Below are positions 1-40,973 of a stretch of DNA of 64,000 nucleotides, piece after piece; positions within the stretch are counted from its first letter, which is position 1, and each line of letters starts with the position of its first letter. The position numbers and the translations under genes are program-made. The notes under the pieces were generated by a model. That model ran no database searches and was not told where the DNA came from. It was given only the letters and a program-made list of their open reading frames with translations. Location: NCBI GenBank assembly GCA_044221725.1, contig JBGAON010000001.1:256001-320000 (forward strand), in the 5' to 3' direction. The stretch is from Elusimicrobiota bacterium (GTDB lineage: Bacteria > Elusimicrobiota > Elusimicrobia > F11).

Positions 1-1815
1 GCCGCTTCGACAAACTACGCGAACGGAATTGCTGTTATTGATCTCGATGGCACGGCCGGAGAAGTAATTACCACAGATCCGACAAATTTCTTTGTCACGA
101 TTGACGTTGGCGATCGCTCGTTATCGGGCAAGTCCACCCGCGGCCATTCGTTTGGCCTTAAGATTAAGACGTTTGGTGATTTCACGTTTGTTCCGCCAAC
201 GGCCGGTGCGTCTACCGACATTAATTATGTTTCGTTGATCACGAATTTGACCACAATTCTCGATGAAGGGGCGATGATCGTGTCGCCCGTGTTCTTGCTG
301 CCGAAGATTTGGGCAAACCCGTATGGCGATGGCTATCCGGCGCTCGATGAGAACGGCAGTCCGGAGCCGAGACGTTACGATTCGGATGGCGTGCCAATGG
401 TTGATGTGGACGATGACGGAGCGAATGACATCATTAAAGATGCCGCGACCGCGCTCCCGGGTGTTGACTTGGACGGCGATGGGCTCATCGAAGTCGATAT
501 GACGCGCAGCGGATTCTTGTCGGTTGACTTTAACAACGACGGTATTCCCGATGACGTGTTGCCCGATCAAAACGGTGACGGAATTCCCGAAATTGACTTG
601 GGTAAAGATGGGTTCGCTGATTTTGGATACATTCCTGAAAAGTGGTCCAAAGAAACGTCGCGCCTGTTCTCGCGTTGGGCGAAGATTAAGAGCGGTGCGT
701 TGGATCGTTACGAGATCGGTCTTGGTGTGAACAATTTAACGAACTCCGTTTCAGAAGCGCAGGGCAACAACGGGTGGGTTACATCGGACAAAGAGAATTC
801 TCTCGAACTAAACAATCTCACTCTGTTATCGGCGGCTGTTGCGCGGTTGTCTCAAAGTATTCCGTTGGATAAAAATCCTCCGTTTGATCTTCTTGTCGAC
901 AACACGAGCGACCTCACGAATTTCACCGGGGAAAATGGGCAAATTCAGGTGGACAGCGAAATCATGTCCTATTCGGTGCGGGCGAATAACGTGTTTCATG
1001 TCAACAAGCGCGGTGAATCGTTTGGAACGCCGCGCGTTGAACACCTGTTGGCGGCTCGCGTGACCAACGAAGCCTATGTTGTCCGTGCGCGTGCGGTGTC
1101 CACGTCGGGCGTTGCGGGTGCAGAAACCGCTATTAAAGTTTATCGCGTCGACCTTTCGCCGCCGTCGATTCCAGGCAAGCCTGTTTCCGACCAAGAGTTG
1201 GCCGGTGGTGCGCCCGCGAAGACCGGTGTGTTCACCATTAAATGGAGCGGTTCAAGCGACAGCGAATCCGGTGTTCGTGCCTACGAAATTCAGGAGCGCG
1301 TGGACAACGACCCCGTGTGGGCCACGATTCGGATGGTTCCCTCGGCGCAGCATTCCCTTTTGGTAGGGAACAAAGACAATCCGTCGAATCTCCCGAAACC
1401 ATCGGGTCACTTCTATTCCTATCGTGTTCGTGCGTTGAATCAAGCGGGTGGCGTGAGCGATTGGTCCGCACCGTCCGCGGCGGCCAGCACCGGCTTCCCG
1501 ACGGAAGCGATCACGAAGGTCACGAACTATCCGAACCCGGTCGACATCCGGCAAGGTCCAACCAATATTTCGTACATCTTGAATGAAGATTCCTCTGTCA
1601 AAATCACTCTGTTCGACATCCTCGGTTACCAAATTCGCAGCTGGGAGTTCTCGGCCGGCGGCAACGGCGGTAAAGCGGGACCGAACGTGTTCAAATGGGA
1701 TGGAACGGATGCCGGCGGTTCCAAGGTGGCTGCCGGTGGATATATCATGCGAATCGAGGTCATTGGTACAAAAGGTTCAACCACCGTAATTCGCAAAATC
1801 GGCATTCTAAACTAA
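1..1815 (+). CDS. C-terminal part of a large secreted/surface protein: DxDxDG Ca-binding repeats, fibronectin type III-like domain, C-terminal FlgD-Ig/T9SS type A-like sorting domain (5' end outside window)
   Basis: Frame 1 is open from base 1 (AASTNYANG...), so the TTG at 235 is not the true start. Repeated DVDDDG, DLDGDG, DFNNDG and DQNGDG motifs. FN3-like segment WSGSSDSESGVRAYEI...YSYRVRALNQAGGVSDWS. Ends NYPNP...VKITLFDILG...WDGTD..G..VAAGGYIMRI...IRKIGILN. Confidence 0.8.
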   Translation, partial: AASTNYANGIAVIDLDGTAGEVITTDPTNFFVTIDVGDRSLSGKSTRGHSFGLKIKTFGDFTFVPPTAGASTDINYVSLITNLTTILDEGAMIVSPVFLLPKIWANPYGDGYPALDENGSPEPRRYDSDGVPMVDVDDDGANDIIKDAATALPGVDLDGDGLIEVDMTRSGFLSVDFNNDGIPDDVLPDQNGDGIPEIDLGKDGFADFGYIPEKWSKETSRLFSRWAKIKSGALDRYEIGLGVNNLTNSVSEAQGNNGWVTSDKENSLELNNLTLLSAAVARLSQSIPLDKNPPFDLLVDNTSDLTNFTGENGQIQVDSEIMSYSVRANNVFHVNKRGESFGTPRVEHLLAARVTNEAYVVRARAVSTSGVAGAETAIKVYRVDLSPPSIPGKPVSDQELAGGAPAKTGVFTIKWSGSSDSESGVRAYEIQERVDNDPVWATIRMVPSAQHSLLVGNKDNPSNLPKPSGHFYSYRVRALNQAGGVSDWSAPSAAASTGFPTEAITKVTNYPNPVDIRQGPTNISYILNEDSSVKITLFDILGYQIRSWEFSAGGNGGKAGPNVFKWDGTDAGGSKVAAGGYIMRIEVIGTKGSTTVIRKIGILN

Positions 1816-1834: not shown

Positions 1835-3676
1835 TTGCCTGATTTCTGCCTTCAAATTGTCATCAGCAAATCTCTCCTCCGTCATGACCCGCCCCCTAGA
1901 CTCATGATGTCGAACGAAATGCATTTCGTTTGGCGCGGGTCACAAAAGGGTGAAATAGAAATGAACGAAGTAGCAGAGGGGACATCGTTGCTTTATTTTT
2001 GCAAAGCGCTTTTGGCGCTTTGTTCTTCTATTTTTTCCCGGCCCAATCTCTCCTCGAAAACCTCTGCGAAATCGTTGCTCGATAACTATCCATTGTTTGC
2101 GCATCTCACCCGTGCGTTCATGATGATTATGCTTATCGCGTCCGGTTCGCGTTTGTACGCTGGCGGGGAACCCGCCGGTTTCACGCAGTGGGGCGTCGGT
2201 GCTCGCTCGCTTGGTATGGGGCGCGCGTTTCTCGCGGTTTCAGACGATGCCAGCGCTACGTACTGGAACCCTGCCGCGATGGTTCAATTGGAGCGCAAGG
2301 AGCTTATGGCGATGCAGGCCACGCTCTTCCAGCAGACGACGCTCACTTCTCTGAGCTACGCGAGTCCCGGATCCAAAATGGGAGCCTGGGGCTTTAATAT
2401 GACACGGCTCACATCCGGCGACTTCGAAAAAATGTCGGTGACCGTCGATCCGTCGTCTCCGCCCGACAGCCCAACTTATCTTGAAGTGAAAAAGATGGGT
2501 TCTTTTACCGTTGCGCAGCAAGCGATGACGTTCGCTTATGGAAAACAAGTTACAAACAAACTGGCCATGGGGCTTTCTCTTAAACGCATCAGCACGCAGA
2601 TTGATACCTTCACGCAAGCGTTCGCAGCCGTTGACGCGTCCGTTTTCTCGAAGGTAAATGAGAATTATCGTTTTGGTCTTGCCATTCGAAACGCCGTGAC
2701 ACAAGCGCCGGCAACCTCGAGTGATCGTTTGCCTTTAACGGTTCGCGTGGGCAACGCGTACAGCCTTTTGAACAAACGCCTTATCCTCGCCGCGGATTTA
2801 AATTCGAATAAATATTCCGGAATGGGTTGGAACCTCGGTTCCGAATATTGGGCAACGCGAAAAATGGCACTCCGGCTTGGTATCGAAAGCCGCAAAAGTC
2901 AGATCTCTGAGACCACCTTTGGTTTCGGTTTTGCCGCACGGAGCTTGAATTTGGATTTGGCTGTGGGCCTCACCGAACTCGGCATGTCGCAACGGATGTC
3001 GGTGTCGTGGAAATTTGGTCAGGCCGCGGCCCAAGGACGCGGCGATGAAGCACGCCGCTTAATCAAAGCTGGAGAGTCGGCGTTTGCGAAAGGAAATTAT
3101 GCGCAGGCCGTGGCGCGTTTGGAAGCGGCGCTTTCTGTGGATCCGTCGAACAAAGATCTGCAAGCGATGGTGGCAAAGATGAACGCGATTGCCGGTGCGA
3201 TCCCCGCCGCCACTGGCGACGGCGAAATCGACCGTCTGGTGCGCCAAGGTGTGGCGGCGTACGTGCAGGGCGACATGAACACCGCGTACGACTCGTTGCG
3301 CACCGCGTTCGAGAAGAATCCGTCGAACCAAAACCTCATGAATTTCACAAATCGCGTGGCCCGCCAGGCCGGCTTGCCTCAGGTGGAACCTCCGCGCGAT
3401 ACCGTGTCAGGGGCGCGTTGGACGCTCGTTGATCAGAAGCTGCACGATGCGCTGACCGCGATCTACGAAGGCCGTTACGATGTGTCGATCACAAAATGCG
3501 AACAAGTGCTGCGCATTGATCCGAGCAACGTGACCGCGATCGGCCGCATGGGGGCCGCGTTCTTCCTCATGGGCGAAAAAGAGAAAGCGATTACATTGTG
3601 GAAACGCGCGCTCGAGCTGGAACCGAACAACCAGACCGCGATCGACTACCTGCGGCAACTGGGTGCCTATAAGTAA
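1835..3676 (+). CDS. PorV/PorQ-like (FadL-type) outer-membrane beta-barrel with C-terminal TPR domain; true start probably downstream (about 1961-2120)
   Basis: GVGARSLGMGRAFLAVSDDASATYWNPAAM hatch motif, alternating beta-strand pattern ending in MSVSWKFG, followed by TPR repeats (GNYAQAVARLEAALSVDPSN; GEKEKAITLWKRALELEPNN). Confidence 0.8.
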   Translation: MPDFCLQIVISKSLLRHDPPPRLMMSNEMHFVWRGSQKGEIEMNEVAEGTSLLYFCKALLALCSSIFSRPNLSSKTSAKSLLDNYPLFAHLTRAFMMIMLIASGSRLYAGGEPAGFTQWGVGARSLGMGRAFLAVSDDASATYWNPAAMVQLERKELMAMQATLFQQTTLTSLSYASPGSKMGAWGFNMTRLTSGDFEKMSVTVDPSSPPDSPTYLEVKKMGSFTVAQQAMTFAYGKQVTNKLAMGLSLKRISTQIDTFTQAFAAVDASVFSKVNENYRFGLAIRNAVTQAPATSSDRLPLTVRVGNAYSLLNKRLILAADLNSNKYSGMGWNLGSEYWATRKMALRLGIESRKSQISETTFGFGFAARSLNLDLAVGLTELGMSQRMSVSWKFGQAAAQGRGDEARRLIKAGESAFAKGNYAQAVARLEAALSVDPSNKDLQAMVAKMNAIAGAIPAATGDGEIDRLVRQGVAAYVQGDMNTAYDSLRTAFEKNPSNQNLMNFTNRVARQAGLPQVEPPRDTVSGARWTLVDQKLHDALTAIYEGRYDVSITKCEQVLRIDPSNVTAIGRMGAAFFLMGEKEKAITLWKRALELEPNNQTAIDYLRQLGAYK

Positions 3677-3738: not shown

Positions 3739-5631
3739 ATGCGGATGAATGCTGCCCGTCTGAGAAACGCGCTGTTTTTTAGCGTCCTTTTGCTTAGCCA
3801 GTTTGCTCTGGTCTGGGCAGAAACCGATGCTCCCGACCCGGTTGCTCTTGAACAGGAAAGACGACTTAAAGACGACTCCGAAAAACAAGCCCAGAAAATT
3901 TGCGACAGCATTATGGGTGCGGGTCGATCGAATGTGCTTGTGAATGTGGAATTGGGCTTGGAGAGCACACGCAAGGGCGGGTCCGCCCTTAATCAGAAGC
4001 GTGATTCAAAAAATGGCTTGAACGACGACAATTTTATTTTGCCATGGGTTCCGGCACCGAAATCTGTCACGAAAGAAGAAACTCCCAAAGACATGAGCGT
4101 TGAGAATCAAGCGGCGCAGCAGGCGACGCTCGACGTGAAAACAGTCTTAAAGCGCTTCGATATTACCGTCGTTCACGATGAGAAGGTTCCGGTCGAACGC
4201 GTCGAGATGGCCAAAGGTGCGCTCCAGTCGGCGTTTGACCGCTACGCGTCAATCCTAAAACTGGTCTTCAAGGCGACGACGTTCCAACACGACGTTGAGA
4301 ACTATGACCCGAAAGAATCCATTAAGAAAAATTTCATTCAGTCGCTCGATTTAAAGAGCTTGCTTTACCTGTTCTTGCTCATGCTGGCTTTTATGGTGTT
4401 GCGATTTTTCTTTGGACCGCTCGCCGACTTCATGAAGAACTATATCGAAGGGATGCGCGAGCAATCGAAATCAAAGGTTGAAATGGAAAATCGCAGTGAA
4501 AGTGAAAACGAAACCGATGCCGAGAGCGAAGAGGAAGGAAACGTGGACGGCGAAGGATTGACGCCGGATGAGCAAGCCGCTTTGGAAGCGCAGTTGGCGG
4601 AGGAGGAAGCTATGAAGAAGTTTGAGCCCTTCAAATATGTGACGGACGATAACATTAAGCAGCTTGCGTACTTGCTGCATCACGAGGAACCCTGGATCGT
4701 GGCGCTCGTGATTTCTTATCTGTCGGCCGAACATTCGTTTAAAGTGATGGAGGCGCTGCCGGCCGATCTCCAGGCGAAAGTGGCGCTTGAAACCGCGATG
4801 TACCGCCAAACCTCGCTTGAACAAGTGCAAACCATCGATGAAGACATCAAACAGAAGATCGATTTTGTTGTTGGTGGCCTCGAAAAGCTCGTGGTGATTC
4901 TCGAGAGCTCGGACCGAATGTCGCGCGACAATATTCTCGAATATCTAAAAAATGAAAAGCCGGGCGTGTACGAGCGCGTGCGCGAAAGAATCTTGTTGTT
5001 TGACGACATCGTGAATTTCCCGAAAGTCGCAATGCAGGTGGTTGTGCGGGAGCTTAAGACCGAACAATTGGGGAAAGCATTGCGTGGCGCGAGTCCCGAA
5101 CTTCAAGCAAAGTTCTACGAGAATATGTCGCAAGGCGCCGTGACGTTGCTCAAAGAAGAAATGGAATACGGCCGGCCGGTGACCGACGACCAAATTGAAG
5201 AAGAGCGCCGCAAAATCATCGACATGGTGAAGGTTATGGAAACCGAAGGAAAAATTTCTTTCCGGCAGAAGGGAAAGAGCGGCGCGAATGCGCTTGATCT
5301 CGGCAGCGAAATGCCTGGCATGAGCATGAGTTCGTTGCTGAACAAAAGCAAGCCGAGCGATCCGGAAGGTGCCGCGCAAGCGTACGCTGCGGGCGCCGCC
5401 GCACAGGAGCAAGGAAACATGGAAGAGGCATTGCGACAGTACGAAATGAGCGTGAATATGGATCCAACGGTGGCCGCTGTGCAAATGGCCCTGGCCGGAG
5501 CTTATTACGCTGTTGGACGATACCAAGAATCGTTGGCCGCGTACGATGCGGCGCTACAGATCGAACCGAATCCGGATTTTCAAAAGTGGGTCGATGACTT
5601 TCGTGCAACTCTGGCGACGCCGGCGGCCTAA
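3739..5631 (+). CDS. Fusion protein: signal peptide, FliF-like ring-building domain, TM helix, FliG middle and C-terminal domains, TPR
   Basis: RBS GAGGAG upstream. FliG-like segment LAYLLHHEEPWIVALVISYL...GG...ILLFDDI...ALRGASPELQAKFYENMSQGAVTLLKEEMEYGRPV. TM LLYLFLLMLAFMVLRFFF. FliF-like ICDSIMGAGRSNVLVNVEL...LKRFDITVVHD. The FliG call is strong; the FliF-like call is moderate. Confidence 0.8.
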   Translation: MRMNAARLRNALFFSVLLLSQFALVWAETDAPDPVALEQERRLKDDSEKQAQKICDSIMGAGRSNVLVNVELGLESTRKGGSALNQKRDSKNGLNDDNFILPWVPAPKSVTKEETPKDMSVENQAAQQATLDVKTVLKRFDITVVHDEKVPVERVEMAKGALQSAFDRYASILKLVFKATTFQHDVENYDPKESIKKNFIQSLDLKSLLYLFLLMLAFMVLRFFFGPLADFMKNYIEGMREQSKSKVEMENRSESENETDAESEEEGNVDGEGLTPDEQAALEAQLAEEEAMKKFEPFKYVTDDNIKQLAYLLHHEEPWIVALVISYLSAEHSFKVMEALPADLQAKVALETAMYRQTSLEQVQTIDEDIKQKIDFVVGGLEKLVVILESSDRMSRDNILEYLKNEKPGVYERVRERILLFDDIVNFPKVAMQVVVRELKTEQLGKALRGASPELQAKFYENMSQGAVTLLKEEMEYGRPVTDDQIEEERRKIIDMVKVMETEGKISFRQKGKSGANALDLGSEMPGMSMSSLLNKSKPSDPEGAAQAYAAGAAAQEQGNMEEALRQYEMSVNMDPTVAAVQMALAGAYYAVGRYQESLAAYDAALQIEPNPDFQKWVDDFRATLATPAA

Positions 5632-5633
5632 GA

Positions 5634-7385
5634 ATGAAACCATCCACGGAACTCGACAATCGTCTCACACGACTTCAAAAATGGTCCGAACGCTACGATC
5701 GCCTGCTTGAGCGCGAGGCGCGGTCGATTGAAGCGCTTTTTATACACGCGGTCGCGGACTGGGAAGCGGAAAAAAAGCAGAAGATGGAAGAATATTCTGC
5801 GCAAGAGGCGCAGATCAAGTCTCAGCTGGATCACGCAGGGAAAGAATACGCTCAGTCGAAATATCGGCTCGAGCGAGACACGACCAGCAACAAAACCGAA
5901 ATTAAAAAAAATGAAGACGAATACCGAGATCTCGAAAAGAAATACGAATTGGAGTTGACGCGTTTGGGAGACGAAAAGACCAACGCGCGGGTGTCGCTTG
6001 AACGCCAGAAAAGCGCGCTTACCGAACTTTACCAGGAAAAAATGCGCAATCTTACTGTCACGCGTGCGGGGCTTCTGCGCGAGTGGCAGACCATGGAGAT
6101 CAAAATCCGGGAGACCAAAAATCGCAACGAAGAGGAAATGAAGAAGTTATCGGAAGAGAGCGAAAAAAATATTTCTGCTCTGAGAATCAGTGCCGAAGCG
6201 AAAAAAGAGGGTTGGTCCATCGCGCTGGACACGATTAAGAAAGAGCTGGCGTCGCTCGCAACCGAGCGTGAGCATATTGAAAAGCGTCTTGTCGATATTC
6301 GAGGCGAAAAAGAGAAAGAGCTCAACGAGGCCCGCCTTGCAATGAAGTTGGCTCGGGAGCAGCTCGAGGTGGACAAAGCAACGCTTATCGAAAAAGCCGA
6401 AGAAGATCAGCGCAAATGCGAAGCTGAGGTCGCCGATCTTAGAAACAAGATCCTTGTTGGAGAACGCGAGCTGCAGGATTTTGTTACACGACATGAGTTG
6501 GTCAAGAAGGAAACGGAAGAAGGGTTTTTGAAAGAAGAAAACATGTTGCGGGAGTCGGTTAAAGCTGAAACCGAACGACGTGATTACGAACAAAAGCTTT
6601 ACGAGCAAGAGAAGACGGGCAAGGAAAAAGAACTAAACCGGCTAAAAGAGGAATACGAGAAAAAGAAATGGCAATGGGACAATCAAGTGCGCACGTTAAT
6701 GATGCAGAAGTCCGTGAACGATTCCGAGTACGAGGCAGAGAGGCTGCGCGTGGATCGCGAGGCGCGCACCGCGCTGCGGAGCCTTGAGGCAAAACGCGAT
6801 GAGTTGAAACAGCGACTTGCCGATATTAAAAACCGTCACTCGGGATTAAGTGTCAACGCGGAGAAAGAGATTCAACTGATAAATCAACGTTGGCATTGGA
6901 GACGCGATCGTTTGTGGTCGTTGTGGCAGAGTCGCTTGGACGTGCTGCGGAAAGAGCGGCTGGCGCTGCACGAACAGATCGAAGCGCTCCAGCAAACATT
7001 TGAAAAGAGCAAAGCGCAAATGAACGATTCGGAGCAGCGCGAATCAAAGCGGCTCGATGACATGCAGGGGTTCTTGTTGCAAATGGGCGAGAAGAACAAA
7101 GGGCAACGCAAACAGCACGAAATCCAATTTGAGCTTGAAAAAACGCGACTTTTCGCTCAGATTAAAGAATTGGAGACGTCCATTCTTGATTGGGCGGATC
7201 GATTGAAGCAGGTTCAGTTGGATGTCTCGAAGGAAACAACGGGTGCCGCCGCGCAGGTAAGCTATTTGGACCGTTGGTATCGCGATGAAGAACAGGAAAC
7301 GCAAGCGTTCGTGAAAGAAATTCAGGACGCGATGTCTATCGTTCAAACCGTTTTTGAACAGTTGGGATTTAAAAAGGCAGCGTAA
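5634..7385 (+). CDS. Long coiled-coil protein (583 aa), unknown function
   Basis: E/K/R/Q/L-rich heptad composition along its whole length, no TM or signal peptide, starts 2 nt after the preceding stop. Confidence 0.8.
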   Translation: MKPSTELDNRLTRLQKWSERYDRLLEREARSIEALFIHAVADWEAEKKQKMEEYSAQEAQIKSQLDHAGKEYAQSKYRLERDTTSNKTEIKKNEDEYRDLEKKYELELTRLGDEKTNARVSLERQKSALTELYQEKMRNLTVTRAGLLREWQTMEIKIRETKNRNEEEMKKLSEESEKNISALRISAEAKKEGWSIALDTIKKELASLATEREHIEKRLVDIRGEKEKELNEARLAMKLAREQLEVDKATLIEKAEEDQRKCEAEVADLRNKILVGERELQDFVTRHELVKKETEEGFLKEENMLRESVKAETERRDYEQKLYEQEKTGKEKELNRLKEEYEKKKWQWDNQVRTLMMQKSVNDSEYEAERLRVDREARTALRSLEAKRDELKQRLADIKNRHSGLSVNAEKEIQLINQRWHWRRDRLWSLWQSRLDVLRKERLALHEQIEALQQTFEKSKAQMNDSEQRESKRLDDMQGFLLQMGEKNKGQRKQHEIQFELEKTRLFAQIKELETSILDWADRLKQVQLDVSKETTGAAAQVSYLDRWYRDEEQETQAFVKEIQDAMSIVQTVFEQLGFKKAA

Positions 7386-10087
7386 TGGATAAACCAGAGG
7401 AAAAATCGGGGCCGCTCAAACCGCCGCATCCGCCACCAGGCAAAAAACCTGGTACGCCTTTGCCGAAAGGTCCGGTTCCACCGCGCGGTGGAATGCAGTT
7501 GCCCGGCGTCAAGCCGGTCGCCAAGCCGGCCGTGCCACCAGCGTCGCCGGCCATTCCGCCTTTGCCCCCGCAAGCGAAGCCACCCGCGGGTCCCCCATCA
7601 ATGCCACCGCGACCACCGACACCCCCGGGCATGAGTGCGCCGCCGAGCGTGCCACCGGCTCCACCGCCGTCCGGCGCCGCTGGTCCCTTCACGCCAGCGC
7701 TTTCAAACAAAATTTCAGAAGCCAACGCCGCGACCTCTGAACTGGAGCAACGTATTGCGGATCTTGAGAAGAAGCTGCTCGAAGAACGCGAGAAAGTTTT
7801 GCTGGCGTCGTTGCGAACAAAAGAAGAAGAAGCGGTTTCCGCCAAAGTAGAAACGTCAATCAAGGATATTCAGGAAAAACTGCGTCGCGAAAAACGCGAA
7901 CAAGAATTGGATGAGTCTCGCCGAAAATCGGAAGCGCGTGCGAACGAATTGGAACGTCGCATGGCCGAAGAACGCGAAGCGTGGGTTTCAACGTTGAAAG
8001 GTCAGCTTGGTCAGCGCGATCAGATTACGCAAGAAATGGAGACTCATTTCTCGTCGCGCTTGAAAGACCTGGAATACCGATGGTCACAAGAAAAATCCGG
8101 ATTGGAAAGCGCGCTGCGTGAACGCGAAGCAGAACTCACGCGGGTTCGTCACGAATACCAGATTAAAGGAGAACAAGAGAAAGCGTTTTGGGAAGACCGT
8201 TTGAAATCGGTGGCCGCCGAGCGGGACAAGCTTGAACGTGAACTCGAACGAACGAAAGACAAATTTGCACAAGAAAAAGACCATTTGCTCATTGAACGAC
8301 AATCGCTGCGGGACCAAGTCAGCAAAGCCGACAGCCTTCTTAAGTTCGTTGAAGAACAAACACGCACAGAAAAAGCCGCGATGCAGCGCGAAGCCGAGGC
8401 CCACGCGAATCTTATTCGGCAGCAGGGATCTATTGAGCGCGAAAGTTTCGAAAAGCAAATCGCCAATTTGAACAGTCAGATTCAGACGCAGGTGCGGGAT
8501 CTTTCCGAGAAAACGACCAGTTTGGCGGCGGTAAACCAGCAATTGACAAATGTTCGCGGTCAAATTAATCAATTGGAGTTCCGCCTTTCGGAGCGGGAAA
8601 AGGTGATCGAGGAATATCGACGGAAATCGACCGAGATTGACGGGCTTTCCGATGCGCAACGCAAAAAATATGAGGTCGAGATAGAGCAATTGCAAAACGA
8701 TTTGAGTCGAGCGAAACGAGCGGTCAAGGAGGAGGCCGAACGGGTCATGACCGAATCCGAATCGCGGATCAAAACGTTGCAATCGCGGTTGGATTGGTAC
8801 GACACAAATATAAAACGCGAATACGACAACGCGCGCATGGAAGTTAGCTCGGAACTAACGCAGCTGGAAGTGAAGTACAAAGAAGCACAAAATCAAATTC
8901 GCGAGTTGCAAAAACAGACGGAAAGCAGCGCGAATGTTCAACAAGAGCTGGATCAGGTTAAAGCCGAATGGAAGCAGGCACAGTGGGATTTGGAAGCGCA
9001 GTTAAAAGAAGCGAACGATCAGTTGAAGCTGACGCAAGGAAAACTCGAACAAGCCGAAGACGCTCGCATAAGCCTGGAACAAGAGTTGCGTCAGCGCAGC
9101 GCGAATGCCGATTTTTCTCAGTCGCAAATGGAGCAGCGCGAATTGGAAATTAAAAAACTTCTCGATCGTTCCGATTCTCTCGAGAAGGAGCTCGCTTTAA
9201 AGAAAGAGAAAGAAGCAACGATGGGGGCGCAGTTTGAAGAATACAAGCGGTTGCTGCACGGCAAGGGTCTGCCGGATGTCGAAGAATTACAGAACCAGAT
9301 ACGCGATAAATCCACTGCGCTTGACCGCGCGAAAGAGACAATTCACAAGCTGAACAACGAAATTCAAGACGCCGAAAAGAGGGAACAAATTCTCCGGGAG
9401 AAAGAAAGGTCCGTGAAAGATACGGTCAGTGAAAAAGACGAAATCCTCGCCGAATTCAAAAATCGTGTGGCGACGCTCGATCGAAAATTGAAGCAAGCGC
9501 AGGACGAATTCGCCGCCATGCACGCACAGTCTGCGGAGGAGAAAGAGCGAATTTTGAATCAGGCCGCGCAAGAAAAGGAAAGACTGATCAATCAGAAACA
9601 GATTGAAATTGAACAAGCACGTCGCGCGGCCGCTGAGGAAATGGCTGAGAAGATTCGAGCAGAGTTGCCGCCGCCGGGGCCTGCCCCCGAGACCGTGGCC
9701 GCACAAATTCGCCAAGATTTGGAAGCCGAATACATGGACCGCCTGCGCGACAAGGAATCGGAAGTCGATAGTAAAGTGGCCCAAGCGCGGGAAGAAACGA
9801 AAAAAGAAATGGACCGCCTTAAATGGGAAGCAGAAAGCATGAAAGAGGAGCTCAAACGCGCGCGTGAAGCGCGATCACAAATCGAACGGGAAGCGCAAGA
9901 GCTTTTGCAGCAGGCGGAAGCGCATTATCAACGTGAACTCGCGAAGCATTCACAGGAGATCGATACAACGGTAAAAGAGCAGCCGAAAGGCTTTTTCACG
10001 CGCATCGGACGCATTTTGGATACACCGATTATCGATACTGGCAAGAAAAAGAAAAACGAAGACGATGATTTTACTGCGGCGGCTTAA
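7385..10087 (+). CDS. Long coiled-coil protein (900 aa) with proline-rich N-terminus and C-terminal amphipathic helix
   Basis: About 100 aa Pro-rich head (PPHPPPGKKPGTPLPKGPVPP...), then about 750 aa of coiled coil, then KGFFTRIGRIL. TAATG overlap with the upstream gene. Confidence 0.8.
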   Translation: MDKPEEKSGPLKPPHPPPGKKPGTPLPKGPVPPRGGMQLPGVKPVAKPAVPPASPAIPPLPPQAKPPAGPPSMPPRPPTPPGMSAPPSVPPAPPPSGAAGPFTPALSNKISEANAATSELEQRIADLEKKLLEEREKVLLASLRTKEEEAVSAKVETSIKDIQEKLRREKREQELDESRRKSEARANELERRMAEEREAWVSTLKGQLGQRDQITQEMETHFSSRLKDLEYRWSQEKSGLESALREREAELTRVRHEYQIKGEQEKAFWEDRLKSVAAERDKLERELERTKDKFAQEKDHLLIERQSLRDQVSKADSLLKFVEEQTRTEKAAMQREAEAHANLIRQQGSIERESFEKQIANLNSQIQTQVRDLSEKTTSLAAVNQQLTNVRGQINQLEFRLSEREKVIEEYRRKSTEIDGLSDAQRKKYEVEIEQLQNDLSRAKRAVKEEAERVMTESESRIKTLQSRLDWYDTNIKREYDNARMEVSSELTQLEVKYKEAQNQIRELQKQTESSANVQQELDQVKAEWKQAQWDLEAQLKEANDQLKLTQGKLEQAEDARISLEQELRQRSANADFSQSQMEQRELEIKKLLDRSDSLEKELALKKEKEATMGAQFEEYKRLLHGKGLPDVEELQNQIRDKSTALDRAKETIHKLNNEIQDAEKREQILREKERSVKDTVSEKDEILAEFKNRVATLDRKLKQAQDEFAAMHAQSAEEKERILNQAAQEKERLINQKQIEIEQARRAAAEEMAEKIRAELPPPGPAPETVAAQIRQDLEAEYMDRLRDKESEVDSKVAQAREETKKEMDRLKWEAESMKEELKRAREARSQIEREAQELLQQAEAHYQRELAKHSQEIDTTVKEQPKGFFTRIGRILDTPIIDTGKKKKNEDDDFTAAA

Positions 10088-10268
10088 CGGCACCGAGTTT
10101 TGGCTGAACGCCGAGCTCATTGAGCAAGTGGAGAGCACGCCGGACACCGTGATAACACTCACGACCGGCAACAATATTTTGGTTTTGGATAAGCGAGATG
10201 CTGTGATCGAAAAGATTGTCGCGTACCAGCGTCAAACGAAACTGAAAAAGGAAGAGTCATGGACATAG
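10065..10268 (+). CDS. flbD: Flagellar FlbD (SwrD) family protein
   Basis: MILLRRLNGTEFWLNAELIEQVESTPDTVITLTTG matches the FlbD pattern (MI.LTRLNG..F.LN.DLIE.IE.TPDT.ITL..G), and it sits in the usual position just upstream of motA. Confidence 0.9.
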   Translation: MILLRRLNGTEFWLNAELIEQVESTPDTVITLTTGNNILVLDKRDAVIEKIVAYQRQTKLKKEESWT

Positions 10269-11047
10269 CAACAATTGGCGGAATATTGATTGGCGGTTTC
10301 ATGGTGTTCTTTACGGTGTTTCATTCCGAAGGGATAAAAGGTTTTGCCCCGTTTATGAACGCCGAAGCGTTTTTGATCGTGTTGGGCGGGACCTTCTGCG
10401 CGTTGCTCGTCAATTACCCAATTTCCCAAGTGTTTGGAATGTTCAAAGTGTTGAAAAAAGTGATGAGCAACTACACGGTCGATACGCAAGAAATCGTTAC
10501 GACATTTGTGAAGTTCGCGAAAAAGGCGCGCACCGATGGATTCCTCGCGCTACAGGAAGAAGTTAAAAGTACGAAAGACGATTTTTTGAAACGGGGTGTG
10601 CAGCTTGTGATCGACGGAGCCGATAAAGAATTCATTCAGAACATGATGGAGACGGAACTGGGATTTATTCGAGAGCGGCACAAGGTCGGTCAGGAAATTT
10701 TTAATTCGCTGGGCACCTACGGCCCCGCGTTCGGCATTATCGGCACGATTCTCGGAATGATCATGATGATGAGCACGCTGGACGATGTGGCGCAGGTGCC
10801 GCGCCGAATGGCTCTTTGCTTGTCGGCGGCGTTCATGGGGTTGGGCTCCGGTTATTTGATCTTCTTGCCGATGGCCGGGAAACTTCGTCGCCGATCCGAA
10901 GAAGAGCTTTTAATTAAAGAAATTATTATCCGTGGTGTGCTGCTTCTACAGACTGGGGCGGCGCCCAGCTTGCTCGAGTCCAATCTCAAAGCGTATCTTG
11001 ATCCTGCCACGCGCAGCCTTATCCGGACGACGGCCGGGAACGAGTAA
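10259..11047 (+). CDS. motA: Stator A subunit, MotA/PomA family
   Basis: FLIVLGGT, KARTDGFLAL, DDFLKRGVQLVIDG, GPAFGIIGTILG and FLPMAGKL motifs. Confidence 0.92.
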   Translation: MDIATIGGILIGGFMVFFTVFHSEGIKGFAPFMNAEAFLIVLGGTFCALLVNYPISQVFGMFKVLKKVMSNYTVDTQEIVTTFVKFAKKARTDGFLALQEEVKSTKDDFLKRGVQLVIDGADKEFIQNMMETELGFIRERHKVGQEIFNSLGTYGPAFGIIGTILGMIMMMSTLDDVAQVPRRMALCLSAAFMGLGSGYLIFLPMAGKLRRRSEEELLIKEIIIRGVLLLQTGAAPSLLESNLKAYLDPATRSLIRTTAGNE

Positions 11048-11724
11048 TGTCTCTCAAGCCCCAAAAGGGATTTATTGACGAAACCGATCCGCGCGTCACA
11101 TTGATCGGTCATCCCGCGCCCGCGTGGATGGTGAACTATGCGGATCTTATGACCGAACTTGTCTGTTTTTATTTGATCCTTTACGCATTGTCAGCGGCTC
11201 TTTCGAAACCGGTGCAGGAAGCGAAGAAAGAAGTGGAAGAAAAAATGAAGCAGGAAGAGGTGGCGGGCGACGTTAAAATCACGAAAGACGGCCTTGTTAT
11301 CTCGTTGCAGGAACAGGGATACAAGGTGTTTTTTCAAAGTGGTTCGTCGGAGATGACCGATGAAATGAAAGGGATTTTGAATCAGTTGGCTCCGACGTTT
11401 AAGAAGCTTGCGGAGAAAAAACACGACATCATCGTGGAGGGCCACACCGATGATATTCCGATCCACACAACGAAGTTTGATTCAAACTGGGAATTGTCAA
11501 CGGCGCGCGCGACAACGGTCGTCCAATATCTCATTCATGAACACAAATATCCCCCGGAGCATATTGCGGCGATTGGTTACGGTGAAAACAAGGGATTGCC
11601 CCGTGGCCCCGACGAGGATTTGACCGCGTGGCGCTCCAAAAATCGCCGTGTGGTGTTCCTCATTAAAAATCCCGATTCGCCGGCGAAAACCTCGGAAGTG
11701 GCTGAAGTTTCAGAAGGCCACTAA
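11047..11724 (+). CDS. motB: Stator B subunit, MotB family, with OmpA-like peptidoglycan-binding domain
   Basis: WMVNYADLMT TM motif with the conserved Asp; VEGHTDDIPI...SNWELSTARA...GYGE...NRRV. Confidence 0.92.
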   Translation: MSLKPQKGFIDETDPRVTLIGHPAPAWMVNYADLMTELVCFYLILYALSAALSKPVQEAKKEVEEKMKQEEVAGDVKITKDGLVISLQEQGYKVFFQSGSSEMTDEMKGILNQLAPTFKKLAEKKHDIIVEGHTDDIPIHTTKFDSNWELSTARATTVVQYLIHEHKYPPEHIAAIGYGENKGLPRGPDEDLTAWRSKNRRVVFLIKNPDSPAKTSEVAEVSEGH

Positions 11725-11744: not shown

Positions 11745-12548
11745 ATGAAATTTCCCTCCTCTCGAAAACGGCTCTCAATAATTTTGGTTTCTTTTTTAAT
11801 TGCCCCTATTGGCTGTGTGTCCAAAACACGGTTGCGCAAGACTCTTGTTGAGAACCCTGACATTCTGTCGGACGTCATTCAAAAGAATCCCGATGAATTT
11901 ATAAACGCTTATAAAGTAGCCGCCTCGGCGGTGAGGCAGAAAGAAGCAGCCGAAAAAGCCAAAGAAGAAAAGCTGCGCCGCTACGCCGAATTCGCGGACC
12001 CGAAAAAACCGGTTGTCGAAAAGGACCGCGCCATTCGGGGAAACATAAGTGCGCCGATTCTCATTGTTTGCTACTCCGATTTCCAGTGCCAGTATTGCAA
12101 GCACGGGTTTCAAAATATTGCGGAAGTTCGGGCAAAATACGAAGACAAAGTTTGTTACGTGCACAAAAATTTTCCTTTGCCGTTTCATCCCATGGCCATG
12201 CCCGCCGCGTTGCGTTTTGAAGCGATCGCCCTTCAAAGCGCTGACAAGGCCTACCAATTCCACGATGCCATTTTTATCGACCAGCAACGGCTGGCTGCTG
12301 ATGGGGAAAAATTTTTGGATGAAATAGCAAAGGGTCTTGGTGTCGATATGAAGCGCATGAAAAAGGATCTCACGTCGGATGTTGTGAAGAAGCGCATCGC
12401 TGACGACACAGCCGAAGCAAAAGGATTTGACTTCGATGGCACGCCGGGTTTTATTGTGAGCGGGGTGCGATTTTTTGGCGCTGTTGCGCCGGCCGAGTTT
12501 GAGGATATTATCGACCGGCGGCTTAACGAACTCGAGCCCAAAAAATAA
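11745..12548 (+). CDS. DsbA-family thiol-disulfide oxidoreductase, probable lipoprotein
   Basis: YSDFQCQYC active site, FPLPFHP, and the cis-Pro loop GTPGF. N-terminal hydrophobic stretch ends in APIGC. Confidence 0.85.
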   Translation: MKFPSSRKRLSIILVSFLIAPIGCVSKTRLRKTLVENPDILSDVIQKNPDEFINAYKVAASAVRQKEAAEKAKEEKLRRYAEFADPKKPVVEKDRAIRGNISAPILIVCYSDFQCQYCKHGFQNIAEVRAKYEDKVCYVHKNFPLPFHPMAMPAALRFEAIALQSADKAYQFHDAIFIDQQRLAADGEKFLDEIAKGLGVDMKRMKKDLTSDVVKKRIADDTAEAKGFDFDGTPGFIVSGVRFFGAVAPAEFEDIIDRRLNELEPKK

Positions 12549-14693
12549 TTACGTCTTCGAGAATCGAAACTCGCCCGTTTTTTCGCTGACGCCCACCATA
12601 ATTTTGTCGCCGTCTTTTACGGCGCCTTTCAGTAGCTCGAGCGCAAGCTTGTCCTGAATTTCGCGCTGCAACAAGCGGCGCAGAGGCCGCGCTCCAAACT
12701 CCGAATCAAATCCTTCGTCAGCCAATTTTGTTTTGGCGCTTTTATCGATCGTCAGCGTGATTCCGCGGCGCTCGAGTTTTTCGGATAGGTCGCGCAACTG
12801 CAAATCGACAATCTTGCCGATATCGGATTTGCTGAGTTTGTTGAACACGATGATCTCGTCAATGCGATTGATGAGTTCTGGTCGGAAATTTCGTTTCAAC
12901 TCTTCGGTCACCTTTTTCTCGAGCGTCTGCTTCGGCAGATTTTCTTGAAACAAAGGACTGCCGATGTTTGACGTCATGATGATCACCGAGTTCTTGAAGT
13001 TGACCACGCGCCCTTGGCCGTCGGTCAGCCGACCGTCCTCCAAGATTTGCAGGAGCACGTTAAATACTTCGGGATGTGCTTTTTCAATTTCGTCAAACAG
13101 AATGACGGCGTAAGGACGCCGACGTATCTTCTCTGTCAGTTGTCCGCCTTCTTCGTAACCCACGTAGCCCGGGGGCGCGCCGATGAGCCGGCTCACCGAA
13201 TGTTTTTCCATGTATTCAGACATGTCGATGCGCACAAGCGCGGTCTCATCATCAAACAAAAACCAAGCAAGCGTTTTTGCGAGGTAGGTTTTTCCCACGC
13301 CGGTGGGTCCCATGAAAATAAAGGATCCCTGCGGACGGTTCGGATCCGCCAAACCGGAACGCGAGCGGCGAATGGCGTTTGAAATGAGTTCCACCGCTTC
13401 GTCTTGACCCACGATCCGTTCTTTAAGTTTTTCGTCCATGTGGACGAGTTTGTCGAGTTCGCCTTCCATGAGTTTCGAAAGCGGAATGCCGGTCCATTTC
13501 GCCACCACCTCAGCAATGTCCTCTTCGTCCACTTCTTCCTTCAACATTTTTTGACTTTTTTGAAGCTCGGAAAGTTTGGCCTGTTCCTTTGCAAGCGTCG
13601 CCTCCAAGTCGCGCAAGGTTCCGTAACGAATCTCTGCCACTTTTTCGAGGCGCCCTTCTTTCTCGAAGCGTTCGCTTTCGATTTTTGCGCGTTCCATGGC
13701 TTCCTTCGTTTTACGGATGCGGTCGATAACTTCCTTTTCGCCGGCCCAGTGCTTTTTCATCTCAGACGATTTGTTTTTGAGTTCCGTCAGTTCTTCACCC
13801 AATTTCTTCAATCGCTCGGCGGACGCCGGATCCTTTTCTTTCTTAAGCGCTTGGTTTTCAATTTCGAGCTGCGTGATCTTCCGGTCCAGCTCGTCGATTT
13901 CCGTCGGCAAGCTGTCGATTTCGATGCGCAACTTGGACGTCGCTTCATCGATCAAGTCGATAGCTTTGTCGGGCAAAAAGCGATCGGAAATATAACGATC
14001 CGATAAAGTCGCTGCGGCCACGAGCGCCGTGTCTTTGATGCGAACGCCGTGGTAAACCTCGTAGCGTTCTTTGAGACCGCGCAAAATAGCAATCGTGTCT
14101 TCAACGGTTGGTTCTCCGATGAAGATTGGTTGAAAGCGCCGTTCAAGCGCCTTGTCTTTTTCGATGTATTTCCGGTATTCGTCGAGAGTGGTAGCACCAA
14201 CGCAGCGAAGTTGGCCGCGTGCCAGCGCGGGTTTCAGCATGTTCGACGCGTCGACCGAGCCCTCGGCCCCTCCGGCGCTAACGATCGTGTGAAGCTCATC
14301 AATAAAAAGAATGACTTCGCCGCCCTTGTCTTCAATTTCTTTTAAGACGGCTTTAAGGCGTTCTTCGAACTCTCCGCGGTATTTTGCACCCGCCACAAGC
14401 GAGCCAATGTCGAGCGCGACAATGCGTCGATTTTTCAGCGTGGTAGGAACATCGCCTTGCGCGATGCGCCGTGCGAGCCCTTCCGCAATCGCCGTTTTGC
14501 CCGTCCCAGGATCGCCAATCAGCACCGGATTGTTTTTGGTACGGCGCGACAAAACCTGGATCGCTCGCCGAATTTCGGCGTCGCGCCCGATAACCGGATC
14601 GAGCTTGCCTTGCTTGGCCAGCTCGGTTAAATCTTTTCCAAAACGCTCCAATGCCGGGCGCTGGTCTTCTTGTTGGCTGGGAGAAATCTGCAT
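12549..14693 (-). CDS. clpB: ClpB disaggregase lacking the N-terminal domain
   Basis: Two AAA+ modules ([16 protein letters not shown]), [12 protein letters not shown] pore loop, long middle-domain coiled coil, no IGF ClpP-binding loop. ATG at 14693 follows RBS AAAAGGAGG. Confidence 0.93.
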
Positions 14694-14704
14694 TCGGCCT
14701 CCTT

Positions 14705-14731
14705 TTGGCACTCGAATATTTGGAGCGCTAA
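14705..14731. promoter_or_regulatory. CIRCE element (HrcA operator) upstream of clpB
   Basis: TTGGCACTC-N9-GAGCGCTAA versus consensus TTAGCACTC-N9-GAGTGCTAA: one mismatch per arm, exact 9-nt spacer, abutting the clpB RBS. Confidence 0.88.
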
Positions 14732-19503: not shown

Positions 19504-22188
19504 TTGAACATGAAAAACAAAACTTCTCTTCGAGGACGAACTATGAACCGTATTGCTGTTACACTCGCTGCCCTTTTGATGTACAACTCTTTTGCAATGC
19601 CGCTCGCGCAAGCTTCCGCGATTGCGCAACCGCCGATTGGAAATATCTCAAGTCAACACAATGGGTTTATTGCGCAGCCTCAAAAAGTAAAGAAATCGAG
19701 CGACATTCCCGCGTTTCGTGTGCCCGCGTCGGTCGGTTCAATCGTCGAAACCTACGCACCAACGAAAGCCAGCCGTCTCGTTTATCATTTGCAAGACGTC
19801 CACAAGCATGTGCCGGCTCAAATCAATCTGTCCGAAATTGTTTCGCTTCTCGAAGCTCATGCCGCAACCCAGGGAAAGAGATTGGTTGTTGCTGTTGAAG
19901 GTGTCACGGGTTTGGTTGATTCCGATTCCATCGCCAAAATCCAAAATCAAAAGGCCAAGGAAGATGTTGCCGCGGGGCTTCTGAAATCCGGTTACCTGTT
20001 GGGCGAAGAATACGCGGCCATAACCCATGCTCCGGGCCGGATTCAATTAATAGGTATCGAAGAACCAACGCTTTATAAGAAAAACGGCCAAGCTCGCGAT
20101 TTGTCCATCGAATCCCGGGCCGCCGTGCTCAATATTTTGCGCGAGACGCACGCTCAACTCGAAAAGCTTGTTCCGCACAACTTCAATCAAATTTTGACGC
20201 GCCTTGAGACCATGCGTTCGCAGGTGGAACAGGGAACGCTGCCGCTCACCGATTACGTGACGTTCCTCAAAGCGACGAATCCGGCGATCATTGCGCAGCA
20301 TCCGAATTTGGCGCGGATGGCGGCACTCACGGCTGCTGAAGCCGGAATTGATTTTGCGAAAGTTGAAGAGCAAGGCCGCTCACTGGTCCAAGACGTGATG
20401 GTGAACAAATCCGAAACAGAAGTGGATCAAATGCTCACGGATGCCCAGGCGCTCAAAGAGGGTCGGCTTTCGGCTCTCTCCTACTATTCATTGTTGTTGG
20501 GCCAAGCCAAAAAGGACTATCCGATTGTCCGCAAATACGTTGACTACCTTCGCACATCCGATTCGATCAACAGCGACCAGCTGTTCGACGAAGTTCTCGA
20601 GGCTGAAAACCAAATTGCGAAATCGCTCGTAAAGCATCCGGTTGCTATGGAGCTGTACGAATACATTCGTTGGGTGGAACGTCAGGAATGGTTTTTTTCT
20701 CTTTCGATGATTCCGCAGGATTGGGCTGAGCAAAAAAATGTAGAAGCCAAAACGATTATTTCGAAACACTCCGCCATCCGTAGTTTCGTCGCCGAACAGG
20801 TCGGCGATCTCGGTTATGCGTTCAATACCCCGGAGCTTTCGATGGAAACGCTGCTTCCCGCCTACAGCGGTGCGCACACCTTTTATGAAGCGGCGTCCGA
20901 ACGCAATGAGACAATGGTTTCGAATCTGAACAAAATCATTCGCAATCCAGCGAACGACGATGCGGTAATTGCATTCGTGGCCGGTGGCTTCCATACGCCG
21001 GGTATGACAAAGCTTTTAAAAGATGAAGGGTACGCTTACCAAGTGATTCGCCCACAGCTTGAAACTGACGTGGAATTGAGCGAGGAAATTAAATTTCCGC
21101 AGAAAAACGTCAGCTATTACCGCGCGCCTGAAACAATTGCGACCGAGGGCGGAGCAGAAGCGGTCAAAGGTGCAATCGGCAACGCGCCAGCCGTGAATGT
21201 CGAGGATGTGGCGAGACAGATTGAAAAAGGGGCAAGTCCTGAAGAAGGATCCGACCGGGGACCGAACGACGGCGGTCGTAAAGGATTCAGCGTCGTTGAG
21301 GTGTTGGTGGCCATTGTGGGCGTAGCGAGTGTTACTGCCATATCGCTTTATCTTTTCCAAGATTTTCGAGCCGGCACGCTCACCGGTGCAAAAATTGGTT
21401 ATTCCGTCCTCGGATTGTTTGGCGCGCTGGTGTTTGCCGCGATCATGCAGGGCGTAACGGGTAACACGGGTAGTGATTTGGGTGGCGGCAAATCAATCGA
21501 GGCGCAGGCCAGCAACGAAGCAAAAGTCACTACGAATACGTTGCAAGATGAAGCGACGCGGAAGAAAGCCTTTGCGATCGAACTGAAAGCGTTCTTCGAA
21601 AAGTATCGTTCACGGCAGAGCAGCGATCCCCGCCTGATTGTTGCCGATGTCTATGATCAAGACTCGACCAGCGAAACGCAAGCAATAGACGGCGAAGGGT
21701 TTGTAAAAGTGGTACAGGCATTGAGCGTTGTCGCTTCTGGAAGTCCGCTTAACGCAGCAATCGTTGTGAGTGCAAGCGAGGGTGATGTTTCGGTAGTGGA
21801 TGCCTATTCGAATCAAATGCGCGCCTATCAGAATAGTCAAAATGCGCAGGCAGCCGGACTTAGCTTTTTCGGTACCGCCACACAGGGCACAAATGTTCTC
21901 GATACGTTGAAAAGCATTCCGAGTTTGCGCGACAACGCGAATGAGGGAACTGCCTATGTCGTTGGAGGCCAGGCGAGTTACACCGGTGTCGGTGTGGAAC
22001 ACCACTACGTGTCGCGCGGCGCAGTTCAACGCGCGGTGAAAGCCTTTGTTGTGGGGCGATATGGAGCGGGTCATGCAGAAGAGTTGTCACAAGAACTCCT
22101 TAATATTCTTGGTCGCCGCTGGGGCAATATTGAAGGCCACTTCACCGATGCAATGATTACGCAAATGTTCACGGAAATCATGGCATAA
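19504..22188 (+). CDS. Large exported/membrane protein: conserved N-terminal domain (QDxH...EG...RN..M..N...GGFH), internal prepilin-like motif, two TM helices, unknown C-terminal domain; likely start 19543
   Basis: Long clean ORF; RBS GAGGA before ATG 19543; signal peptide ending LAQA; motifs shared with the ORF at 55037; followed by a terminator. Confidence 0.75.
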   Translation: MNMKNKTSLRGRTMNRIAVTLAALLMYNSFAMPLAQASAIAQPPIGNISSQHNGFIAQPQKVKKSSDIPAFRVPASVGSIVETYAPTKASRLVYHLQDVHKHVPAQINLSEIVSLLEAHAATQGKRLVVAVEGVTGLVDSDSIAKIQNQKAKEDVAAGLLKSGYLLGEEYAAITHAPGRIQLIGIEEPTLYKKNGQARDLSIESRAAVLNILRETHAQLEKLVPHNFNQILTRLETMRSQVEQGTLPLTDYVTFLKATNPAIIAQHPNLARMAALTAAEAGIDFAKVEEQGRSLVQDVMVNKSETEVDQMLTDAQALKEGRLSALSYYSLLLGQAKKDYPIVRKYVDYLRTSDSINSDQLFDEVLEAENQIAKSLVKHPVAMELYEYIRWVERQEWFFSLSMIPQDWAEQKNVEAKTIISKHSAIRSFVAEQVGDLGYAFNTPELSMETLLPAYSGAHTFYEAASERNETMVSNLNKIIRNPANDDAVIAFVAGGFHTPGMTKLLKDEGYAYQVIRPQLETDVELSEEIKFPQKNVSYYRAPETIATEGGAEAVKGAIGNAPAVNVEDVARQIEKGASPEEGSDRGPNDGGRKGFSVVEVLVAIVGVASVTAISLYLFQDFRAGTLTGAKIGYSVLGLFGALVFAAIMQGVTGNTGSDLGGGKSIEAQASNEAKVTTNTLQDEATRKKAFAIELKAFFEKYRSRQSSDPRLIVADVYDQDSTSETQAIDGEGFVKVVQALSVVASGSPLNAAIVVSASEGDVSVVDAYSNQMRAYQNSQNAQAAGLSFFGTATQGTNVLDTLKSIPSLRDNANEGTAYVVGGQASYTGVGVEHHYVSRGAVQRAVKAFVVGRYGAGHAEELSQELLNILGRRWGNIEGHFTDAMITQMFTEIMA

Positions 22189-40818: not shown

Positions 40819-40850
40819 ATTTTTGCTACCATCCGTCGCACAGTAGCACC

Positions 40851-40961
40851 CTTATCAAGAGTGGTGGAGGGATTGGCCCAACGAAACCACGGCAACGGTT
40901 CGACTAAACTCGAATACGTGCCAAAGCCAGTTCGCCAGACGTTTGGCGAATAACCGATAAG
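40851..40961 (+). ncRNA. SAM-I (S-box) riboswitch
   Basis: CTTATCAAGAG-TGGTGGAGGGATTGGCCC-AACGAAACCAC-GGCAAC...GTGCCAAAGCC...GATAAG: P1 CTTATC/GATAAG, kink-turn P2, GCAAC core, P4 hairpin. Confidence 0.92.
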
Positions 40962-40973
40962 AGGAACAGTTAG

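Follow-up and report, generated by a model that had tools for sequence, protein, structure and literature searches.

In the bacterial flagellum, about 34 copies of FliF make up a ring, and the protein's C-terminal tail (FliF-C) co-folds with FliG's N-terminal domain (FliG-N); to our knowledge, FliG in combination with a flagellar-type stator is known only from flagella. The Agl-Glt gliding motor of Myxococcus places an ion-driven A/B motor in a trans-envelope complex. Its AglR belongs to a TolQ-like generic transporter class (PMC12505986). FliF-FliG fusions obtained by engineering or mutation in Salmonella and Vibrio form rings, and SpoIIIAG, which has an RBM3-like domain with a beta insert, forms a 30-mer without the ring-building motifs RBM1 and RBM2 (PMC11481574). 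Many homologues of motAB, flbD, and fliG have been reported from non-flagellated Elusimicrobiota, where their role was called "enigmatic" (10.1101/2022.07.08.499144). Here we analyze a 64,000-nucleotide stretch of the genome of Elusimicrobiota bacterium (F11) (GCA_044221725.1, JBGAON010000001.1:256,001-320,000, forward strand; hereafter the window), which encodes a natural one-chain fusion of a FliF-type RBM3 domain with the middle and C-terminal domains of FliG (FliG-M and FliG-C). The fusion is real, conserved, and, as far as we searched, undescribed in print: a full-text literature search, with most subscription journals outside its coverage, found no description of the fusion or its gene cluster, and the accessible text of PMC13277936 and PMC12204202 does not treat the system. 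Because such a fusion, with its own MotA and MotB and an outer membrane partner, occurs in bacteria that mostly lack flagella, we regard it as the likely rotor of an envelope motor, driven by ions and so far undescribed.

The fusion is the 630-residue product of a plus-strand open reading frame (ORF; 3739..5631, in window positions), with a layout defined from the ORF call, Pfam, and a full-length AlphaFold model. The original prediction had described this frame as a cleavable signal peptide, one transmembrane (TM) helix, an acidic linker, FliG-M/C, and tetratricopeptide repeats (TPRs), and the model, hydropathy, and Pfam bear out that order. A predicted cleavable signal peptide (residues 1 to 27; 3739..3819) was recognized by eye from its basic N-region, hydrophobic core, and V-W-A ahead of E28, and the model has a signal-like helix at residues 5 to 23. 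The periplasmic RBM3, or beta-collar, domain (residues 29 to 186; 3823..4296) is followed by a single TM helix at about residues 205 to 226 (4351..4416), the one strong hydrophobic segment beyond the N terminus (19-residue windows starting at 202 to 214), and then by an acidic linker (residues 248 to 273; 4480..4557) that is predicted to be disordered (AlphaFold pLDDT of <50) and takes the place of FliF-C/FliG-N. The domains FliG-M and FliG-C, with the Gly-Gly hinge and torque helix, occupy residues 296 to 508 (4624..5262), and a cytoplasmic TPR tail that paralogues lack occupies residues 542 to 626 (5362..5616; Pfam TPRs at about 547 to 615). Residue 34 is where the RBM3 helix begins, and FliG-M is reached through the TM helix and the acidic linker, which leaves no space for RBM1, RBM2, or FliG-N; there is no Pfam FliG_N match in the fusion either, and these domains are absent as had been proposed. 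Judged as a full-length protein, the fusion is neither FliF nor FliG and is not part of a flagellum: it has no FliF equivalog match and lacks TM1, RBM1, RBM2, and the FliF-C tail, while TIGR00207, the model of full-length FliG, scores 124 bits against a cutoff of 226.7 and aligns at model positions 110 to 328 only. The family has 305 homologues at an E value of ≤0.001 (8000 scored), which is above chance.

Kinship of the N-terminal domain with FliF emerges from family profiles and from structure. As a single query the domain had no match to any FliF model; among 77 aligned N-domains of the family, 42 match YscJ_FliF_C at an E value of ≤0.1 (best, 5.6e-7), and the homologue P0120 exceeds the cutoff of that model across its whole length. 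A PDB search with the family profile returned five matches, four to FliF and one to SpoIIIAG (5wc3), and alignment of the profile to the single E. coli FliF sequence with hhalign was weak (probability 9.5, E = 0.0034). The AlphaFold model of the domain (pLDDT 71.7, with the insert low) has the helix-strand-insert-strand-helix-strand order of the RBM3 topology. All 18 Foldseek matches at an E value of ≤0.001 are FliF, and an independent wide fold search placed three FliF chains at the top (Z = 11.8, root-mean-square deviation of 2.5 Å over 100 residues), ahead of the next non-FliF fold (Z = 8.9) and of SpoIIIAG (Z = 6.8), which Foldseek listed as well. The fold searches favor FliF for the domain in which the RBM3 pattern had originally been read (residues ~45 to 182), and the domain has the ring-building fold whose lack would have spoken against that reading. 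An OsmC/Ohr fold was also considered and rejected as weaker than FliF in the wide fold search. Separate proteins of ~165 to 245 residues consisting of a signal peptide and RBM3 without the PGVP loop also occur (P0168, P0175, P0181, P0190, P0204, and L106:7347-8228); some of these are named from Elusimicrobia, and P0184 carries two RBM3 copies.

Sequence searches identify the FliG part, with Pfam matches to FliG_M at residues 307 to 375 (E = 2e-13) and FliG_C at residues 402 to 507 (E = 3.9e-28, 98 bits) and with FliG chains as 13 of 13 PDB matches to this region (best, T. maritima FliG-MC, E = 7e-37). A closer similarity to MgtE-N had been named as an outcome that would overturn the assignment; the MgtE_N match (E = 9e-4; 20.2 bits, under the cutoff of 25.9) lies beneath the FliG_C match and was rejected. 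In a FliG tree (53 of 110 rows; root arbitrary), three flagellar FliGs cluster (97/90), and the fusions do not resolve as one clade. Numbering functional residues on the E. coli proteins, we find that the Gly-Gly hinge is invariant across the family alignment and that flagellar FliG has 6 to 7 residues more in the loop ahead of it (the M-C loop). The clockwise (CW) state goes along with a contraction of this loop (10.1101/2024.04.30.591856), so it is possible that the FliG of the fusion is held in a fixed CW-like pose. The FliM-binding EHPQ motif reads EEPW, as first noted and now confirmed by alignments, and its Gln is retained in 8 of 103 fusion rows. EHPQ is also missing from the flagellar FliG of locus L113, whose genome has FliM, so its loss alone is weak evidence, and the missing FliM/N genes described below are stronger evidence. 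Two torque pairs have been described, MotA R90 with FliG D288/D289 and MotA E98 with FliG R281 (PMC12505986). Of 103 fusion rows, 89 have an acidic residue at the D288 position, both it and D289 are Glu in the window fusion, and the R90 position of MotA is Arg or Lys in 49 of 49 sequences; as far as aligned residues can tell, the first pair is kept.

The fusion lies in a tight co-directional run, all on the plus strand, in which a giant fn3/FlgD-Ig protein and a barrel-TPR protein precede it and two coiled-coil proteins, flbD, motA, and motB follow. The product of motA (10259..11047) is of the flagellar type over its full length, its best PDB matches being flagellar MotA/PomA (E = 9e-45), and Pfam and locus comparison identify the plug, the OmpA-like domain, and the channel Asp in MotB (11047..11724); these are the features of the flagellar (FIT) stator class as given in PMC12505986. 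The 67-residue flbD/swrD (10065..10268; PF06289, E = 1.7e-26) precedes them. Upstream of the fusion, a PorV/PorQ-family outer membrane barrel (1835..3676; barrel at residues 116 to 391; NF033709 over cutoff), whose listed TTG probably lies ahead of the true start, ends in a TPR tail (3032-3673) that is predicted to be periplasmic. The 3′ end of the giant surface protein gene, identified from Pfam and ORFs as fn3 domains with a C-terminal FlgD-Ig domain resembling a C-terminal secretion domain (CTD), occupies positions 1..1815. This gene starts ~47 kb upstream of the window (G000:C3:209236-257815, ending at window position 1815) as ORFs of 8021 and 7987 residues split by a ~650-bp patch with several frame switches, and the two are probably one gene of ~16,000 residues with an assembly error. 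Downstream of the fusion are a 583-residue coiled-coil-like protein (5634..7385; ORF, Pfam, and hydropathy) and a 900-residue Pro-rich and coiled-coil-like protein with a conserved N-terminal motif (7385..10087; hydropathy and comparison), neither with a TM segment. Metatranscriptome contigs from one study match pieces of the fusion and its neighbors, most at ≥99%, with DNA carryover possible; a promoter and terminator scan gave no excess over shuffled sequence. Directly after motB come a DsbA-like gene and then a Clp-ATPase-like gene (11745-14711 for the two), the latter identified by eye and also located 3′ of motB in four close relatives. Elsewhere in the window are a SAM riboswitch (40849-40963) and a region with no Pfam match (19504-22188). 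Very large ORFs are numerous in the genome, with as many as 18,006 residues (e.g., G000:C2:219210-273230), and one family of them has a common N-terminal signal-like stretch, ending ...A.

The genome of the window is 93.9% complete and contains two FliG_C matches, both within fusions, with no match to FlhA, FliM/N, flagellin, rod protein, or CheW in searches whose controls were positive. Across 201 sampled Elusimicrobiota genomes, we detected the N-domain profile in 67, FliG_C in 71, the MotB plug in 78 (75 over cutoff), and the TPR-tail profile in 69, with FlhA in 5 and FliM/N in 5; flagella are kept in 5 of the 201. Both the N-domain and FliG_C are carried by 66 genomes from about 28 families. 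Every one of these carriers has MotB and the barrel-type TPR family, and two have FlhA and FliM/N. Two or more FliG copies are present in 52 of the 64 non-flagellated carriers (up to 6 per genome), and the FliG copy number follows that of the TPR tail (Spearman 0.85; equal in 41 of 64), although kin are not independent here. Two large families of small genomes (0/61 and 0/60) and a mostly flagellated family (0/4) yielded no fusion. The original prediction of a self-contained ring without an export gate or switch is supported with qualifications: neither gate nor switch was detected here or in 64 of 66 carriers, but the fusion is not self-contained, being accompanied in all 66 by MotA, MotB, and the periplasmic TPR family, companions that the prediction had not named. 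Beyond the phylum, look-alike clusters in the ESM Atlas (scores of 0.89 to 0.93) come most commonly from Bdellovibrionota, Cloacimonadota, and Bacteroidota, being unaligned and leads only, and a search from the distant homologue P0200 gave no match named from outside Elusimicrobiota.

A genome scan recovered 153 related stretches, and the locus counts given here use the best 80 together with the window and its paralogue, wherever the sequence suffices. Of the best 80, 78 are labeled Elusimicrobiota or Endomicrobia. In 58 of 65 loci the gene immediately ahead of the fusion encodes the barrel, motA and motB are inside the locus in 41 of 51, and the Asp motif of MotB is present in 49 of 50. The second cluster of the same genome (contig C5) encodes a stand-alone TPR protein of the barrel-tail family, a fusion without the tail, motA, two motB, and a response regulator. 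Most of another 17 non-flagellar FliG loci, from six genomes, encode MotA, one or two MotB proteins, and a member of the barrel-tail TPR family, barrel-fused or alone; a few have no stator in the examined stretch. The coiled-coil gene is found in 44 of 48 loci with a TPR-tailed fusion versus 3 of 20 untailed ones, the tailed proteins being close kin; 4 tailed loci have no coiled coil, and 17 of 20 paralogues have neither tail nor coiled coil. The cytoplasmic TPR tail and the coiled coils are therefore optional, and the earlier proposal that the tail recruits a new partner fits its tracking of the coiled-coil gene. In two paralogues a histidine kinase is fused ahead of the RBM3-FliG unit (L116:8689-11172 and L118:6753-9620). 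The cluster is preceded by cyclic di-GMP (c-di-GMP) riboswitches in 4 of 6 loci of relatives (L054, L057, L058, and L060), where c-di-GMP-I riboswitches lie ~2 kb upstream of the fusion and precede the barrel together with a short CTD-like gene. At these loci a gene for a ~1600-residue coiled-coil-like protein comes after the fusion, and motAB is not nearby.

How such a rotor might be coupled to its surroundings is suggested by a conserved LP(W/G)VPxP loop in the beta-collar insert (residues 101 to 107; 4039..4059), which we read as the counterpart of the rod-binding loop of FliF. Across 77 rows of the N-domain no column but its two prolines is invariant, LP(W/G)VP aligns to a GVP of FliF, and the loop is present in most paralogues. 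In flagella, the rod is bound by peptide loops of the beta-collar, which also transmit torque (10.64898/2025.12.04.692373), and loop L2 of Salmonella FliF (P309-N324) binds the rod (10.1101/2024.04.30.591856); the E. coli FliF stretch matching L2 contains GGVPG, a three-residue offset being a reading of the alignment. A conserved grip loop with no rod implies another partner, and the best candidate is the TPR family present in every carrier, usually as the tail of a PorV-like barrel. Complex prediction of RBM3 with the barrel TPR tail (median 0.52, one control 0.33) is evidence neither way. In one divergent cluster, MotB has a weak TPR-like C-terminal match (L090:12130-13152) and FliG has Arg at the 281 position; this makes MotB an alternative partner for the TPR family.

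We hypothesize a switchless, MotAB-driven RBM3-FliG ring whose loop engages the periplasmic TPR of the barrel and so moves the giant adhesin, a proposal that we regard as evenly balanced between right and wrong. Its observed basis is the domain identities, the adjacent flagellar-type stator, the presence of MotB and the TPR family in every carrier, and the lack of a detected export gate, rod, filament, or switch; from these we infer ring formation, rotation, partner binding, and motility. Sec export and signal cleavage would place RBM3 in the periplasm, anchored by a helix equivalent to TM2 of FliF. RBM3 would then oligomerize into an S-ring-like structure, and contacts between FliG-M and FliG-C would form a cytoplasmic ring without the FliF-C/FliG-N joint. 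Ion flow through MotAB may turn this ring in one direction via the retained contact of the MotA R90/FliG D288-D289 type, there being no switch without FliM, FliN, and CheY. The LP(W/G)VP loop, a rod grip in FliF, would instead bind the TPR tail of the barrel, and the barrel would hold the C-terminal Ig tag of the giant protein, so that the motor moves or rotates a surface adhesin, presumably in surface motility or attachment. In this subtype, the coiled coils would be accessories, as would the cytoplasmic TPR. In its boldest form, the proposal would set this beside the flagellum and the injectisome as a third machine made of flagellar parts: a one-chain FliF-FliG motor with neither secretion nor a switch that is turned by MotAB, grips a barrel TPR with its rod loop, and moves an adhesin of up to ~16,000 residues. 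We offer that fuller picture tentatively and think it somewhat doubtful as a whole.

Several observations weigh against this model. The second torque pair (FliG R281/MotA E98) appears to be lost on both sides: the R281 position, which three flagellar FliGs retain as Arg, is Gly in 89 of 103 fusion rows (Arg in 2; Gly in the window fusion), and the E98 position of MotA is Gln in 40 of 49. The FliG R297 position is likewise mostly Thr or Ser in the fusion rows (Thr in the window fusion). The loop and FliF match over 3 to 4 residues, in an alignment that is weak (E = 0.018), and the loop is missing from one flagellar FliF of Elusimicrobiota. Among the loci, motAB is not nearby in 10 of 51, and no more than 20 of 58 had a detected giant-protein C terminus upstream. 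In many paralogues the TPR protein stands alone, without an attached barrel, so a barrel-adhesin output cannot be universal. The Rfam scan found no c-di-GMP riboswitch around either cluster of the window's genome, covering the window, 56 kb upstream (L004 and L105; L003 unscanned), and the second cluster. Finally, this genome encodes six PilT ATPases over the family cutoff and yet no CheW, and therefore has another candidate means of movement.

The motor could alternatively energize secretion, replacing GldLM/GldKN and pulling CTD-tagged giant cargo or a barrel shuttle from a SprA-like translocon, given that secretion by the T9SS (type IX secretion system) requires a proton-driven motor (PMC8986121). 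The genome does encode a 1799-residue SprA/Sov-like protein (G000:C4:344418-349817; L085:12418-17817), which is a partial match (E = 1.6e-31; 108.5 bits versus a cutoff of 200) and found nothing in a PDB search, as well as 25 PorV-family matches (family over cutoff) and 18 FlgD-Ig matches, 12 of which are followed by a barrel within 1.5 kb. Cargo followed by its cognate barrel is the order of T9SS type B cargo with its own shuttle, as in SprB/SprF (PMC12618676), and the SprA-like protein, PorV barrels, and FlgD-Ig-tagged proteins together suggest a T9SS-like export route outside Bacteroidota. Also in keeping with this idea, a search limited to GldM and GldN gave GldM below cutoff and no GldN, but both controls were silent as well, so the absence of GldM and GldN is not established. 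Of the 201 genomes, 184 have the SprA-like gene, among them 59 of 61 and 46 of 60 members of the two families where the fusion was never found; the translocon is thus independent of the fusion, and the module is not a general energizer of secretion. We rejected an obligate role in energizing the SprA translocon on these grounds and consider a more limited role unlikely.

The loss of the R281/E98 pair would be accommodated by a mechanosensor that rotates barely or not at all, in which loading of the surface protein makes the ring dock with MotAB and unplug it, the ring then signaling through kinases, response regulators, or coiled coils. The kinase fusions in two paralogues, the response regulator after the second cluster, and the presence of up to 6 FliG copies are in keeping with this idea. 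The other torque contact is retained, however, as are the hinge, the MotB Asp, and FlbD, and the gene run of the main subtype includes no signaling gene, and we find a sensor quite unlikely. We attach a low probability to a cytoplasmic or type IV pilus output, with the ring driving or organizing the long coiled coils through its TPR and the barrel-TPR serving as a fixed bearing. The co-occurrence of tail and coiled coil, the six PilT ATPases, and the link to twitching proposed in the Uzun preprint would fit such an output, but most paralogues (17 of 20) have neither tail nor coiled coil, four tailed loci have no coiled coil, and no pilus genes were recognized in the conserved run. That the fusion is a decaying remnant of a lost flagellum is hardly credible, for although its parts are flagellar and 5 of 201 genomes of the phylum keep flagella, intact frames are conserved in about 28 families and duplicated in 52 of 64 non-flagellated carriers, non-flagellar partners are conserved alongside, and two genomes carry the fusion beside a flagellum.

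A natural minimal rotor of this kind would test whether RBM3 and FliG-M/C suffice for ring building and torque, and in which direction a motor turns without FliM/N. It would also test whether a rotor-stator module can occur and function in isolation from type III export, a question that bears on the origin of the flagellar motor. Orphan motAB, flbD, and fliG in free-living Elusimicrobiota, a published puzzle, would find an explanation in it, and it would be a candidate mechanism of their surface motility or adhesion. If the envelope-motor reading is true, a flagellar motor has been joined to T9SS-type cargo handling, and the look-alikes in Bdellovibrionota, Cloacimonadota, and Bacteroidota may mean wide occurrence.

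Compared with described machines, the system is closest to the flagellar rotor-stator core, with which it shares the RBM3/beta-collar fold, FliG-M and FliG-C with their hinge, flagellar-type MotA, MotB with its plug, OmpA-like domain, and Asp, and the flbD-motA-motB gene order. It differs in being one polypeptide in which a signal peptide replaces TM1 and RBM1, RBM2, FliF-C, and FliG-N are lacking, in the shorter M-C loop (by 6 to 7 residues) and the loss of R281, and in its surroundings, where no export gate, rod, filament, FliM/N, or CheW was found and a TPR family, a PorV-like barrel, and coiled coils act as its genomic partners. Engineered FliF-FliG fusions are also one chain, but those made in the laboratory are near full-length, whereas this one is natural, much shorter, phylum-wide, and flagellum-free. 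SpoIIIAG, by contrast, is without FliG or a stator and scores below FliF for the domain of the fusion (Z of 6.8 versus 11.8). With the T9SS and Bacteroidota gliding the system has in common a PorV-family barrel right after a giant C-terminal-Ig protein, an SprA-like protein in the genome, and, by inference, an ion-driven motor coupled to a periplasmic ring; here, however, the motor is of the MotAB/FliG type, the predicted RBM3 ring would be anchored in the inner membrane, the barrel has a TPR tail, and the tag is a FlgD-Ig domain. Agl-Glt likewise has an ion-driven A/B motor, and many of the paralogous clusters here carry two B subunits, but MotA is of the flagellar type and is accompanied by a FliG rotor.

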